NCBI GenBank assembly: GCA_963761305.1
Contig: CAVXGK010000002.1
Coordinates: forward strand, 1,376,001 to 1,440,000
Origin: an uncultured Gemmatimonadaceae bacterium
GTDB taxonomy: Bacteria > Gemmatimonadota > Gemmatimonadetes > Gemmatimonadales > Gemmatimonadaceae
DNA: 64,000 bases
Direction of reading: 5' to 3'
The first letter of the stretch is position 1. Each line of letters begins with the position of its first letter. Shown piece by piece: positions 17,520 through 27,423 of this stretch. The notes below the pieces were generated by a model. It was not told where the DNA came from and did not search any database. It saw nothing but the letters and a program-made list of their open reading frames with translations. Position numbers and translations under genes: made by a program.

Positions 17520-20500
17520 CTACGGCTCGTTGCACTGATGAGGAATGGTTGGCGTGGGATCGCCGTCGACGTCGTCGTTGCGACGCTTCAAGTACTCGAT
17601 GATGGCGAGACGCTCGTTCGGCCGAAGGAACCGACCCACGTACCCCGGGGCATACTTGCCGCTATCGCGCGCAGCGGTGTAGGCGCTGTCGAAGAGGTGG
17701 CCCCGGTTGCCGTTTCCGGGCTTGGCGGTGTCGAACGTCCAGTAGCCCTTCACGCTGCGGTTCAGGCCAAGGCTATCCGGATCGTATTCGCGGCTGCCCA
17801 TGGGGAAGGTCACGGGACGTTCCTTGTAGGGTGACAGCAGGAAATAGATGCTCGGCACCGAGCCGTTGTGGAGGAACGGCGGCGTCGCCCAGATCCCTTG
17901 CAGCGGGCGCGACTTGTAGGCCCGAATGATCTGCGGTCTGTCGAGCGCGCCGAAGCCGTCGAGCTCCGCACGCTGCGCCGCGGTCAGCTTAGCGTCGTTG
18001 TATGCTTGATTGCGAATCATCGAGCCCAGGTAGCTGAGCGCCTGGCCCACACTGAGGTTCGTCGGATCGATCTGCGATAGCGTCTGCTCCTCCGAGCTGC
18101 GCAGCGTCGCCAGCGCCTGCTGGCTGGATTGGAGCTGTGCGAGCGACGCCGAGTCCTTGAGAGGCGTGAGACGCTTGATTTCATTCGCCAGCCATATGGA
18201 ATCGCGCTGGATCCATTGCTCGGACGTCGACCGCGCAACCTGACGAAGCTCTGCGGCGGTCATGCCGGTCTTCGAGACGTCGACGCGCGCACGCGCGAAG
18301 TTTGCGGCGGCCATCGAATCGGTGCCGACGTCGCTCGCGCAGAGCGTTGCGACGATCCACTCGGGCTGGTTCGACGGCTTGAGCGGCTGGTCGCGCAGCT
18401 TGATTCCCGCCGGCGCGATGTGCGGTCCGTGGCAACTCTGGCAGTTCTCCTTGAACAGCGCCTGTCCGCTGTCGGCACGCGTCTGATCGATCGGCCCGAA
18501 CAAGTCCGCCGGCCATTCAGGCGGCGTGAGCCGGCGCAGCGTCTGTTCGATCGTGGTGAGGCTGTCGATGAGCGCCGTCGACCGGAAACGCTGCGCGAGC
18601 GGCAACGGATTGCCGTACCGGTCGGCGAGCGTGTAGTTGGCGCCCACGCCCATCGCTTCACCCATGTTTCGCGCCATCGGTTGGCTGACCGAGGCGTTGT
18701 ACTGCACCCAGTCGAATTTCCAGATGTTCCAGAGCGACGGGTAGCTGACCGGCGCGTTTCCGACCTTGTAGTTCTTGGCGACGCCGAGATTCTCGCCGAA
18801 CACAGTGTTGCCAATGCGCGCCAGCGCGTCGGTGCGTCCGTACCCCTCCTGCGTCGGCGAGAGCCCGTGCCACTTTTCGTAGATGCCGATGCCAAAGAGG
18901 TTGAACCCGACCGATGCGAGCTGGCTGTACAGCTCGGATTTCCCCTGGGGATATCCGGCGCCGAGCACCCGCCGCGAGAACCGGTCGAACTTCACGGGAT
19001 CGAGCGCCGTCGCGAGCATCGACGTCGTCAGCGTGATGAGGAACTCGCCGACGTTGGCGTCGGTGAATGCGTGATTCGCCTGGCCGCCGTCGATGCGCAG
19101 CGCGCGCGTCACGTTGTTCTTCGTGATCTCGAGCTGCCCGGTGTGACACGTCGCGCAGGTGACGTCGAGGAGTTCCTCGTGCAGATCGGAGTCGAAATGC
19201 TTCGTGAATCCAACCGGCATCTGATCGGGATTCCGCGGGGTCGGCTGATCGACGAGGAATCCAAACCGCCGCATCTGCTCCGCATCAGCGATCCGCGTCG
19301 TGCCCCACGGCATCTCGAGATTCGCGAACCAGCTGTAGCGAACGTCCTTGAGCCCCGCCCCCTGCGGCGTGTAGTAGAACGTCTGCCGGTCCGCGGCCTC
19401 GAGCCCGTCGCCCCACCCCTTGTTGCGATACAGCACCTCGCTCACCGCGTTCTCCGGCAACTGCCCGTAGTGCGTCTCGACGACGAGCATCGTGCCGAGG
19501 ATCGCCGCGCCCGCGGTGACGATCAGCGCGACGGCGAGCACCGCGGCGTAGCGGCCGAGTGCGCGGAGCTTTACATCGCCAAGCGACTTTCGCTTGGCCC
19601 GAGCCGCTGCCGGCAACGGCGCGCCGCCCCGTACTTCCGCGAGCTCGTTGTGGTGGACGACGGCTTTCGAACCCTTGAGCCCGAGCCGCGCCTTGCGGCT
19701 CGCCGACTCGCCGAACCACCGCGCGCGGTTGATGCTGCCGAGCGGATGTGATTCAGCGGTGGAATGCTCCGTGACGTCGATGTACTCCTGCCGCGCGTCG
19801 TCATCCGACAACACCGAATCGCGGACCAGCTCGAGCCGCCCGACGATGTGGAACGGGGCCTGCCGCTCCGGCCATTCGACGCTCGAGTTCTCGACCCAAT
19901 AGATGTCGTCGCGCTGCTTGCGGCCGTCGCGCATGGCGTCCGAGTCGAGGAACTGAATCCCGAAGTCGAACTCGCTCATCCGCTTGTCGGTCTCGACGTG
20001 CCGAACCAGCTCGTCGCGCAGCATGTTGCGCTCGTGCTCGAGACGCGGCGCCGGATTGTCGTGACGCGAGTTGAGGCAATACTTCACGGCCTCGCTCGGT
20101 CCATGGCGGAACGGGACCCCGCTGAAATAGCGGAAGCGCTGATACGGATGCACCGAATTCTTGAACTGGGCATTCCCGCGCTTCTTCATCTTGCCGAGGC
20201 TCAGGAGCTCCGACCAGTTGAGCGTCGTGAGCGCCATGAGCTGCTGCCATTTCGTTCCCGCCTCGAGCACGCGCATGAGGATCGCGAACTCGTGCGCGTC
20301 GTTGATGGGGAACGTCGTGGCGTTGTTCAGCGCGAAGTCGTGCCGCTTGCCGTTCGGCAAATGCACCGCGAACGACACGGCGCGCACATCCGGCTCGTAG
20401 TCCGCATTGAAGGTCGACGCCGCGTTGGCGAACCGGATCGTCGCGTCATACGTGCCCGGGTTCGCGAACAGGTCCTGGCGAAGACGACCGCGCAGCACCG

Positions 20501-20762
20501 GATCCTCGATCTCCGCCTCGAGATCGAGCACCGTGAACGTGCCGCGCAGCACGATGCCCTTGGTATGCGTGCCACGCCCGAGCGGTCGATGCTGATCGTC
20601 GGCGAGGCGTTTCTGCGCATGCAGAATCCCCCGCACGATTTCCTGGATGTCCTCGTGCTCCGTCGGCAGCAGGCGCTCGAAGACCTTCATGTTCGCCGCG
20701 GGCTGCGGTGGGCGGTATGCAGCCCCTTGCTCGGCCGCCGACTTCGACTCGTGGACGCTCAT
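17520..20762 (-). CDS. Fusion of a catalase-related domain, a TM helix and a RoxA-like di-heme cytochrome c domain
   Basis: RGTHTKG, IRFAN, DFALNN, PLGSINRAR, then a TM helix, CATCH and CQSCH heme motifs, GRTDA, YKSRPLQGIWATPPFLHNGSVP, GNGNRGH. Start overlaps the kinase stop. Confidence 0.85.
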   Translation of the reverse strand: MSVHESKSAAEQGAAYRPPQPAANMKVFERLLPTEHEDIQEIVRGILHAQKRLADDQHRPLGRGTHTKGIVLRGTFTVLDLEAEIEDPVLRGRLRQDLFANPGTYDATIRFANAASTFNADYEPDVRAVSFAVHLPNGKRHDFALNNATTFPINDAHEFAILMRVLEAGTKWQQLMALTTLNWSELLSLGKMKKRGNAQFKNSVHPYQRFRYFSGVPFRHGPSEAVKYCLNSRHDNPAPRLEHERNMLRDELVRHVETDKRMSEFDFGIQFLDSDAMRDGRKQRDDIYWVENSSVEWPERQAPFHIVGRLELVRDSVLSDDDARQEYIDVTEHSTAESHPLGSINRARWFGESASRKARLGLKGSKAVVHHNELAEVRGGAPLPAAARAKRKSLGDVKLRALGRYAAVLAVALIVTAGAAILGTMLVVETHYGQLPENAVSEVLYRNKGWGDGLEAADRQTFYYTPQGAGLKDVRYSWFANLEMPWGTTRIADAEQMRRFGFLVDQPTPRNPDQMPVGFTKHFDSDLHEELLDVTCATCHTGQLEITKNNVTRALRIDGGQANHAFTDANVGEFLITLTTSMLATALDPVKFDRFSRRVLGAGYPQGKSELYSQLASVGFNLFGIGIYEKWHGLSPTQEGYGRTDALARIGNTVFGENLGVAKNYKVGNAPVSYPSLWNIWKFDWVQYNASVSQPMARNMGEAMGVGANYTLADRYGNPLPLAQRFRSTALIDSLTTIEQTLRRLTPPEWPADLFGPIDQTRADSGQALFKENCQSCHGPHIAPAGIKLRDQPLKPSNQPEWIVATLCASDVGTDSMAAANFARARVDVSKTGMTAAELRQVARSTSEQWIQRDSIWLANEIKRLTPLKDSASLAQLQSSQQALATLRSSEEQTLSQIDPTNLSVGQALSYLGSMIRNQAYNDAKLTAAQRAELDGFGALDRPQIIRAYKSRPLQGIWATPPFLHNGSVPSIYFLLSPYKERPVTFPMGSREYDPDSLGLNRSVKGYWTFDTAKPGNGNRGHLFDSAYTAARDSGKYAPGYVGRFLRPNERLAIIEYLKRRNDDVDGDPTPTIPHQCNEP

Positions 20763-27100: not shown

Positions 27101-27423
27101 GTGCCGTCGTCGTGCTTCTCGAGAAAAAGGCGGACCGGAGAGAACTCCGGCACATTTCGGAGATCCGTCTCACCGACGACGAGCCTGTTCAACGCGGCGA
27201 CCGTGAGCGCGATCGACGCGGGACCGGCGGCAGGCGGGTCGCGTCGAAGCGCTTCGGTAATATCCGTCGTCAGCTCGGGCGACTCGCGCAGCACACAGCT
27301 GCCGAGGTCGCGCAGCGGATTGTTCGGCGACGACAGCACCAGCGCTCTCGCGAAGCCGATGAAGTCGACGACGTCATCCCCCTGAAACGCGACATCCGAC
27401 GACGGCGGCGTCCGCGGCTGCAC
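24178..27423 (-). CDS. Multi-TM patatin/cPLA2-like phospholipase
   Basis: ALCFSGGGIRSA oxyanion motif, YLSTVSGGG nucleophile, ISGAAASPNMG, YLSDGGHFENLG catalytic Asp, FPHEST.DQFF. Many TM helices lie between the catalytic halves. Confidence 0.88.
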   Translation of the reverse strand: MQPRTPPSSDVAFQGDDVVDFIGFARALVLSSPNNPLRDLGSCVLRESPELTTDITEALRRDPPAAGPASIALTVAALNRLVVGETDLRNVPEFSPVRLFLEKHDDGTFEQLSVPVRNRLMADTAFSPFLRTRLDRRMLEITARMRTAGHSALCFSGGGIRSASFALGIVQGLATHERLRRFEYLSTVSGGGYTGSWLSAWMQRDGVERVHEQLKPRDAAKDDFARRDVEPSALRHIRSYSSYLAPRLGFFSADTWTVIATIARNIFLIWLVVLPVLAAGLLLPRFIVSCYTTSLHMWKQMGWDPGWLMAGEGIVGIVLAVIGISFVQRNLYSYSGRTESETRFRAPVTMPQFIGWCYVPLMVAVATLTHMWQLVWSFIQVDFGNADPTGALASALTSNKTAASLIALNPNVLNTRALAFTAGIVFWGAVYVLAWVFSVRRAARGGELGSLSARAAGLILALLCGGVAGGVGAASAMALFGLDAWTHSAEFYATFAVPTSLAGMLIATQLAVGVASHSMTDAERESNARFSAWLLIGLVAWTGVVGTTLFGPHLLIGATIKLKHLIGIGGLSGLLASGAASSSPSASSTSGVSGVIAKLRGAVVAIATPTFAVIVLVLVAMLDTQLLSGLCSATGWCFEGNVEHYTSAVRMTSHTPYVSPGVVLVGLLGLAALATIFARCIDTNRFSLHAMYRERLVRTFLGASRLPGERQPNPFTGFDQRDDLPIGELWPPAAHEAPEDRERASHPPLHVVNVTLNTVAGTDLATQSRKAVPFTFTSMHAGSAGVGYRRTRPTRAAGERLYGADRGVTLGTAMSISGAAASPNMGYHSSPAVTFLMTLFNARLGWWLGNPGPAGRQTFDNDEPKYALLPILDEMFGRTTDRSPYVYLSDGGHFENLGLYEMVRRRCRFIVLADAGSDPACAFDDLGGAIRKIRVDFGVPIEFDGEIPIYPRADTNTPNKPDGRYWAVAHIRYSVIDGGGADHDGFLFYIKPAFYGREPADVFNYATSNPAFPHESTSDQFFGEDQLESYRALGLFAVDQMFTSKDPLTMQALEAWNAARPSALSLPSLRPALFSAPAART

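Follow-up and report, generated by a model that had tools for sequence, protein, structure and literature searches.

We describe a three-gene module from an uncultured Gemmatimonadaceae bacterium (GenBank assembly GCA_963761305.1) in which a predicted phospholipase (G1) and a kinase-STAND protein (G2) are coupled to a fusion of a catalase-fold domain with a di-haem c domain (G3); the module is real, conserved, and apparently undescribed in print. The window analyzed is a stretch of 64,000 nucleotides, positions 1,376,001 to 1,440,000 of contig CAVXGK010000002.1, and all coordinates below are window positions. The three open reading frames (ORFs) lie on the minus strand: G1 at 24178 to 27423 (1,081 amino acids [aa]), G2 at 20759 to 24181 (1,140 aa), and G3 at 17520 to 20762 (1,080 aa). 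Their domains and catalytic residues, the change from Tyr to Glu at the proximal position of the catalase fold, and the genomic linkage of the families are direct observations. We see about an even chance that the module makes and responds to oxidized fatty acids by a lipoxygenase-free pathway of release, oxygenation, and conversion with a built-in kinase switch.

A first-pass annotation of this DNA had described three ORFs of about 1,100 aa, coupled by ATGA overlaps and encoding a multimembrane cPLA2/patatin-like enzyme, a Ser/Thr kinase-ATPase-TPR protein, and a membrane-anchored fusion of a catalase-related and a RoxA-like domain. Both junctions are present as claimed (Table 1), and the first two descriptions agree with the evidence given below. 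That of G3 is borne out in its domains, membrane helix, and folds and needs revision on two points: the nearer precedent is the PA2077/PA2078 pair of Pseudomonas aeruginosa rather than RoxA, and the catalase domain lacks the proximal Tyr.

A catalase-fold domain with glutamate in place of the proximal tyrosine

The N-terminal region of G3 is a mini-catalase that the Pfam Catalase model matches weakly (E 1.4e-4, under the cut-off). The structural model of G3 (predicted local distance difference test score [pLDDT] 78), which contains no haem, aligned over residues 31 to 363 with coral allene oxide synthase 1U5U at Z 24.7 (root mean square deviation [rmsd] 3.6, 279 residues aligned), with MAP-2744c at Z 24.6, and with true catalases at Z 20.9 to 22.1. 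Foldseek retrieved 3E4W/3E4Y with this domain (E 4e-11), and the ESM Atlas returned generic "catalase family" clusters only. The distal Thr-His pair (T65 and H66), the Asn (N146), and the haem arginines R63, R110, and R356 are kept in 117 to 119 of 120 homologues; PMC5617202 gives T66/H67 as the distal pair of coral allene oxide synthase.

The proximal position is distinctive. In a profile alignment, Glu352 falls in the column that holds the proximal Tyr motif in 3E4W and true catalases, and this position is Glu in 119 of the 120 close homologues and Asp in the remaining one. Among 150 distant representatives listed, 72 cover the helix, and 68 of these have Glu there. In an alignment of 66 sequences, stand-alone mini-catalases encoded beside di-haem genes end in RxxxY; all eight G3-type domains end in RxxxE and carry Ala for the Ser following the RF motif. 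Many of the Glu-type representatives (P0244 to P0364; L179:9285-10394) are stand-alone proteins of 340 to 440 aa, often with hydrophobic N termini.

That the distal His, the Asn, and the haem arginines are conserved suggests that the domain still binds haem and has not decayed. As the proximal Tyr is missing, a mechanism like that of allene oxide synthase should not be taken for granted. In its mini-catalase fold, Thr-His pair, Asn, and haem arginines, and in being fused or adjacent to a predicted hydroperoxide-forming oxygenase, G3 resembles the catalase-related allene oxide synthases and hydroperoxide lyases (the coral allene oxide synthase-lipoxygenase, 1U5U and 3DY5; the Nostoc 10S-dioxygenase with a catalase-related lyase; MAP-2744c, 3E4W). 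Unlike them, it has Glu for the proximal Tyr and Ala for the His-partner Ser, and a di-haem c protein takes the place of the lipoxygenase or cyclooxygenase-like enzyme with which they are paired.

The Glu-for-Tyr catalase subfamily is a new observation of this study. A literature search covering open-access PMC and bioRxiv, with subscription papers and the supplements and figures of bioRxiv preprints outside it, found no description of a Glu-type catalase or of the three-gene module, nor of glutamate as a haem ligand in the catalase family. G2 was likewise not found in print, though the STAND clade tables of bioRxiv 2026.01.04.697583 could list it.

A di-haem domain of the NF040606 family

The C-terminal region of G3 (residues 455 to 1059) matched NF040606, the di-haem cytochrome c peroxidase family to which FadCcp belongs, with 473 bits against a curated cut-off of 150, and both CxxCH motifs, the P(Y/F)xHNGSVP motif, and the C-terminal His ligand are conserved in 119 to 120 of 120 homologues. 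A single predicted membrane helix separates the two domains of G3. Given the excess of basic residues before this helix (seven Lys or Arg, against two after it), the catalase domain is predicted to be cytoplasmic and the di-haem domain periplasmic. Haem of the c type is attached outside the cytoplasm.

The characterized proteins closest in kind are those of P. aeruginosa, where PA2077 is a fatty acid 10S-dioxygenase that needs both of its haems, PA2078 takes away the toxicity of the PA2077 hydroperoxide, and unbalanced expression of PA2077 is lethal (PMC4496055). A tandem gene pair in genome G844 matches PA2077 and PA2078 in length (634 and 624 aa) and in the positions of the haem His residues (130/375 and 130/365), and both products are NF040606 members (530 and 491 bits). 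The reference values come from Table 1 of PMC4496055, where the PA2077 motif letters differ from the G844 sequence, and W251/S243 of that paper fit the pair only with mature numbering, counted by hand. G3 has Tyr688 where the dioxygenase has the inter-haem Trp and the diol synthase has Ser.

G3 shares with the oleate diol synthase operon and ODS quorum sensing of P. aeruginosa (the 10S-dioxygenase PA2077, the 7,10-diol synthase PA2078, and OdsR; FadCcp subfamily; PMC4496055 and PMC6377657) the NF040606 family, the MauG-type motif, and the third His. The haem spacing is 238 residues in G3 versus 245 and 235 in the PA2077 and PA2078 types. By analogy, G1 to G3 may also share the logic of a dioxygenase, a hydroperoxide-converting partner, and a regulator. 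Unlike PA2077/78, which are secreted by the type II secretion system and act on host oleic acid (bioRxiv 2021.09.08.459554), G3 belongs to another clade and is membrane anchored. The module further differs from that operon in that its second enzyme is a catalase-fold domain, it has its own phospholipase, and its regulator is a kinase-STAND protein, not a LysR protein. Further related papers are PMC13049297, PMC8195603, and PMC11719350.

RoxA (4B2N) aligned with the G3 di-haem model at Z 11.6 (rmsd 3.8, 374 residues aligned), and by alignment G3, like RoxA, has one His-only haem and one bis-His haem. Unlike RoxA, with which it is 19% identical, G3 is anchored and fused rather than secreted, and we rejected its assignment to RoxA, RoxB, or RoxC because these models score 29 to 39 bits on it against equivalog cut-offs of 900 to 1000. 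Among relatives of the domain, only RoxA has a solved structure, which bears on the choice of substrate: as with RoxA, the compound oxidized in place of a membrane fatty acid might be, for example, an isoprenoid or some other alkene, and the module might then be catabolic or make a small specialized metabolite under kinase control. Reuse of catalase folds for other chemistry, as in chanoclavine synthase (Z 21.3 versus G3), fits such a role. Yet the RoxA-type scores just given, the repeated pairing with two phospholipase families described below, which points to acyl lipids, and the failure to find a transporter or beta-oxidation gene conserved beside the module make a non-fatty-acid substrate quite improbable.

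In one Pseudomonas genus, 33 of 34 genomes encode an NF040606 member. At L215:6034-9301 and about 30 Pseudomonas loci among L018 to L116, an uncharacterized di-haem gene of the G3 clade is followed by a Tyr-type, N-terminally anchored mini-catalase gene. Distant di-haem relatives (21 to 40% identity in the best segment) also occur on six viral-collection contigs (L261 to L266), three of which exceed 100 kb, and one of these six relatives spans both G3 domains; a plasmid search found distant NF040606 members only.

The predicted phospholipase and the kinase-STAND protein

G1 matches the Pfam Patatin family PF01734 (E 2e-8, above the Pfam cut-off) and has seven hydrophobic windows scoring above 1.6. 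A Gly-rich loop with Arg (SGGGIRS, residues 156 to 162), S189, and D890 are kept in 116 to 120 of 120 homologues. In the model of G1 (pLDDT 83), the Ser and Asp halves are separated by long helices, and the four best Foldseek rows were human cPLA2 (1CJY and 5IZ5 among them) at probability 1.0 with weak E values of 0.008 to 0.024 and template modeling (TM) scores of 0.2 to 0.33, the low TM scores being due to the membrane insert. G1 shares with cPLA2 and the patatins the Gly-rich oxyanion loop with Arg and the Ser/Asp dyad, and cPLA2 is its best, if statistically weak, fold match; it differs from cPLA2 in lacking a C2 domain and in the large membrane-helix bundle between the catalytic halves, and its activity is a prediction. 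The family is large, with 7,687 matches among 7,995 candidates scored.

G2 combines Pkinase, AAA_16, and weak TPR matches in Pfam, and its kinase residues K39, E57, D131, and D149 are intact. Its ATPase region has a Walker A motif (residues 319 to 326), the hhhhD-type Walker B motif IEDLHWAD, GxP, the winged-helix His (FVH), and C-terminal repeats, the motifs by which STAND proteins are recognized. The motif definitions are those reported for STAND NTPases of the SWACOS class by Leipe (2004). The best whole-module match, TIGR03903, reached 399 bits, under its cut-off of 706. PADLOC matched the kinase only (one model reaches residue 425), and residues 285 to 1140 alone gave no PADLOC 2.0 match. 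In its order of effector, nucleoside triphosphatase (NTPase), and TPRs and in its Walker motifs, GxP, and winged-helix His, G2 resembles the kinase- or cyclase-bearing STAND NTPases (the SWACOS class, the TOMM kinase/cyclase TIGR03903, and Avs-type sensors); it is set apart from them by its score under the TIGR03903 cut-off, by having no cyclase, by a clade confined to the module, and by having no PADLOC match outside the kinase. Complex prediction with the G3 catalase domain (residues 20 to 364), G2 residues 545 to 1140, and haem scored 0.00 and gave no answer.

Linkage and distribution of the module

The first-pass annotation had made its reading depend in part on linkage of the three families in other genomes, and they are linked. 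We compared 28 Glu-type loci other than the present one: an orthologue of G2 is found at 23, a G1-family gene at 16, and a di-haem domain at 24 by the script cut-off (26 counting two fusions cut by contig ends). All three genes occur at 12 loci, or 13 with L234, whose order is exactly that of the window. At two loci a Tle1-type gene stands directly downstream of G3 in place of G1, and two others have none of the partners. The arrangement and orientation of the genes differ between loci. The catalase domain is fused, on either side, to di-haem domains of two distant clades, or it is encoded by a gene of its own. We estimate the probability of chance adjacency of G1 within 10 kb, given one or two copies in 15% of 5-Mb genomes, at well under 1%. 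Clustering of the neighboring genes revealed no fourth conserved gene.

Of the two partners, G2 is the more closely linked to the haem enzyme (23 versus 16 of the 28 loci). The three best G2 matches in 401 Acidobacteriota genomes (836 to 880 bits; the next, 634) all adjoin a catalase-di-haem fusion, and the orthologues group in a single clade (support, 0.997) that excludes seven unlinked paralogues. Similar clusters are accompanied by another STAND clade, whose output domain is a cyclase or a kinase (L052, L139, and L247).

A wider sample comprised 160 NF040606-type loci from genomes and metagenomes, unselected for neighbors (the best 80 each of scans covering 5 of 64 parts, many from related Pseudomonas). 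Within 3 kb, a mini-catalase is encoded at 65 of these, a G1-family protein at 23, and a Tle1-type phospholipase domain at 8, several as fusions; a STAND gene lies within 5 kb at 7. Fusions of Tle1-type (PF09994) phospholipase and NF040606 domains occur in Acidobacteriota (L057:8702-11629 and L086:8864-11782; similar at L120, L127, and L131), and the fusion was confirmed for two proteins. At L052:5340-15875, L139:2884-11153, L259:8438-18523, L020, and L027, a di-haem protein, a Tyr-type catalase, and a phospholipase are found with the signaling gene swapped (cyclase-STAND, kinase-STAND, or kinase-TPR). Gammaproteobacterial-type clusters (L010, L014, L015, L053, L100, and L148) combine a G3-clade di-haem gene and a G1-family phospholipase gene with another di-haem gene, whose grouping with PA2077/78 is weak (0.62).

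In one acidobacterial order (likely Vicinamibacterales by homologue names), 24 of 331 genomes have the Glu-type domain (23 of 330 when the unpublished genome G1159 is left out) and 50 have the G1 family. By comparison of the two lists, the G1 family is present in 17 of the 24 Glu-type genomes versus 33 of the 307 others. Beyond this order, the module occurs in a Terracidiphilus genome, in another acidobacterium, and in the present genome, and a Tyr-type version with a cyclase-STAND protein is found in a myxobacterium (L052). Some of the homologues listed carry Gemmatimonadaceae source names. Presence near the host is patchy: full-length G3 was found in none of 60 relatives, and NF040606 exceeds its cut-off in 4 of 401 genomes of the host phylum.

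Such patchiness and shuffled gene order would also suit an antiphage system or damage-triggered cell death, in which the G2 TPRs sense an invader protein and switch on G1 and G3, whose lipolysis and peroxidation would destroy the membrane. A role of STAND-TPR proteins in phage sensing is well established (bioRxiv 2026.01.04.697583), and lethality of unbalanced PA2077 is in keeping with a toxic output (PMC4496055). The wider evidence gives little support to the membrane-damage immune module that the first-pass annotation had offered as its second option: PADLOC 2.0 matched the generic kinase domain and nothing in G1, G3, or the G2 ATPase-TPR region, the G+C content of the operon (0.65 to 0.68) is that of the genome (0.66), the 35 genes of the window are ordinary by Pfam with no defense island in the flanks, and the 111 genes flanking Glu-type loci are likewise ordinary (peptidases, transporters, and dehydrogenases, with one PIN, one Fic, and one Lhr helicase). 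A defense function is therefore rather improbable.

A candidate oxylipin pathway and its alternatives

In the pathway that we favor, G1 would first cleave fatty acids from the cell's own membrane phospholipids, as its predicted fold and intact dyad suggest. The anchored di-haem domain of G3, which is predicted to lie in the periplasm, would then oxygenate an unsaturated fatty acid with O2, forming a hydroperoxide in the manner of PA2077, a step suggested by family membership. The catalase-fold domain, predicted to be cytoplasmic, may convert the hydroperoxide at a haem ligated by Glu352 rather than Tyr, the weakest chemistry of the scheme; alternatively, it may be a noncatalytic lipid- or haem-binding domain. 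Finally, G2 would be the switch, its TPR region sensing an oxidized lipid or the state of G3, upon which the STAND ATPase would be released and the kinase activated.

The partners of the di-haem domain are two unrelated phospholipase folds and a hydroperoxide-type catalase, and its characterized relative is a fatty acid dioxygenase, which favors acyl chain release, oxygenation, and conversion. The closer association of G2 than of G1 with the haem enzyme likewise favors a role for G2 in sensing or controlling the oxidation step, with signaling conceivable in either direction. The scheme of release, oxygenation, transformation, and sensing put forward in the first-pass annotation is thus supported in its first three steps by the family (NF040606 holds the PA2077/78-like pair), the folds, and the conserved linkage, including replacement of the phospholipase, with the missing Tyr of the catalase counting against it. 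Its "lipoxygenase-free" label holds for this genome, which is 93% complete and in which no lipoxygenase was found by a search that was positive in the control G844. The haem-dioxygenase family PF03098 was also not found in the genome, by a search without any positive-control match. Two desaturase-family genes and cytochrome c assembly genes are present.

Several observations weigh against this pathway. The proximal Tyr absent from G3 is a defining residue of the catalase-related oxylipin enzymes. G3 is not an orthologue of PA2077/78, a candidate assignment that we rejected: the G844 pair scores 204 and 226 bits on the G3 profile versus 627 for a third paralogue encoded beside a mini-catalase gene, and the two groups form separate clades in a FastTree tree of 99 sequences. 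Identity of G3 with the PA2077-like protein is 31 to 41% in two local stretches, against 41% over 628 residues with the uncharacterized paralogue, and a measured activity was found for no member of the G3 di-haem clade. In a split form (L233), the catalase domain has its own N-terminal anchor, which points to the periplasm, away from G2, so that the compartment is not constant. No phospholipase was seen at 10 of the 28 Glu-type loci within the DNA examined, and 13 of 16 G1-centered loci, chosen among those lacking an adjacent Glu-type domain, have no di-haem gene within about 10 kb (3 have one). STAND proteins outside the G2 clade lie near di-haem genes at 4 of the 160 loci, near the level expected from abundance alone. 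Most linked loci come from one order and hence are not independent, so that kinship inflates the counts. Lastly, G1 is frameshifted in the assembly as it stands.

The same gene content would predict the same linkage if the module repaired membrane lipid peroxides, with G1 excising oxidized acyl chains, the di-haem and catalase domains reducing or isomerizing hydroperoxides, and G2 reporting oxidative membrane damage. The NF040606 family is named "peroxidase," PA2078 detoxifies the PA2077 product (PMC4496055), and the near-universal di-haem gene of the Pseudomonas genus noted above, with a Tyr-type mini-catalase alongside in the loci examined, has a housekeeping look. However, the ligands of haem 2 (H778/H1022) and the inter-haem aromatic residue follow RoxA and PA2077, both of them oxygenases (PMC6311187), and the patchy presence near the host is unlike that of core stress protection. 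We therefore consider repair unlikely.

Compared with known systems, the module would be a variant on the oxylipin pathways of bacteria, distinguished by its unusual type of catalase and by a kinase-STAND protein dedicated to it. In a bolder version of the favored pathway, it would amount to a bacterial analog of the animal eicosanoid cascade, complete in itself, with cPLA2-type release, oxylipin synthesis by the di-haem and Glu-ligated catalase-fold domains, and an NLR-like kinase-STAND receptor, possibly as an alarm for damage or infection; this we hold to be doubtful.

Gene starts, sequence features, and neighboring genes

GTG 27423, at the 5' end of the main G1 ORF, is not the true start of the gene: the N terminus of its homologues is encoded in another frame, from ATG 27547, and a one-base frameshift near 27402 splits this 5' part from the main ORF. 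The base at 27402 is missing from the contigs of relatives in two of four soil sequencing runs, both from one study and representing relatives rather than the source strain. The simplest reading, and a likely one, is an assembly indel, the alternative being a strain-specific frameshift.

Table 1. Features of the three-gene module (window positions)
Feature	Position	Strand	Evidence or details
G1 main ORF: predicted phospholipase of cPLA2/patatin fold, catalytic domain split by membrane-helix bundle (about residues 253-680)	24178..27423	-	PF01734, model, Foldseek
G1 true 5' part: 57-aa frame from ATG 27547, stop 27374	27374..27547	-	Matches homologue N termini (P0121, P0122)
G1 Ser189, predicted nucleophile (TVSGGG)	26857..26859	-	Ser in 118/120 homologues, 2 gaps
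G1 Asp890, predicted dyad partner (DGG)	24754..24756	-	Asp in 120/120 homologues
G1-G2 ATGA stop/start overlap	24178..24181	-	Sequence read directly
G2: Ser/Thr kinase (10-266), STAND-type AAA_16 ATPase (292-454), helical/TPR region; no membrane helix	20759..24181	-	Pfam, motifs
G2-G3 ATGA stop/start overlap	20759..20762	-	Sequence read directly
G3 N-terminal mini-catalase (residues 20-365): T65-H66, N146, R63/R110/R348/R356 kept; Ala112 for catalase Ser	19668..20705	-	Alignment, fold
G3 Glu352 at position of proximal haem-ligand Tyr (RxxxY to RxxxE)	19707..19709	-	Alignments
G3 single predicted membrane helix (399-429)	19476..19568	-	Sequence
G3 di-haem c domain, NF040606 (RoxA/FadCcp type)	17586..19400	-	CxxCH 536-540 and 774-778; PFLHNGSVP with H965; H1022; Y688 at inter-haem aromatic position

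G1 and G3 are single copy in the genome, and the ATPase-TPR region of G2 has five distant paralogues (50 to 108 bits). A promoter scan returned no sites, terminator-like sites numbered 9 versus 4.8 +/- 2.0 in shuffled sequence with none convincing at the operon end, and the sequencing runs listed for the locus include no RNA data.

A putative multimembrane glycosyltransferase (weak NF047440; 27829 to 29841, minus strand) lies upstream of G1, about 280 bp from its true start, and elsewhere is not kept beside the module. Further upstream are an intergenic tandem 21-bp-like repeat (29878 to 30181), with repeated 7-residue units in several shadow frames, located upstream of an SNF2 helicase (30298 to 33120), and a region (33832 to 47240) encoding three tandem-domain universal stress proteins, a BON protein, a P-type ATPase, and a phosphoribosyl pyrophosphate synthetase-like protein. 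Just downstream of G3 is a possible short membrane protein ORF (17250 to 17410, minus strand).

Biological implications

Bacterial oxylipin signaling is known mainly from P. aeruginosa, where it involves host oleic acid and a LysR regulator. If the favored pathway is correct, common uncultured soil-type bacteria would have endogenous lipid signaling by means of their own phospholipase and a kinase-STAND switch, and this would be the first small-molecule or lipid input for this class of STAND proteins. The replacement of the proximal Tyr by Glu throughout a widespread group of catalases poses a direct and testable question of haem chemistry. In a Pseudomonas genus, most genomes also carry an unstudied pair of paralogues belonging to the di-haem clade of G3, and this pair would offer a tractable model with easy genetics.

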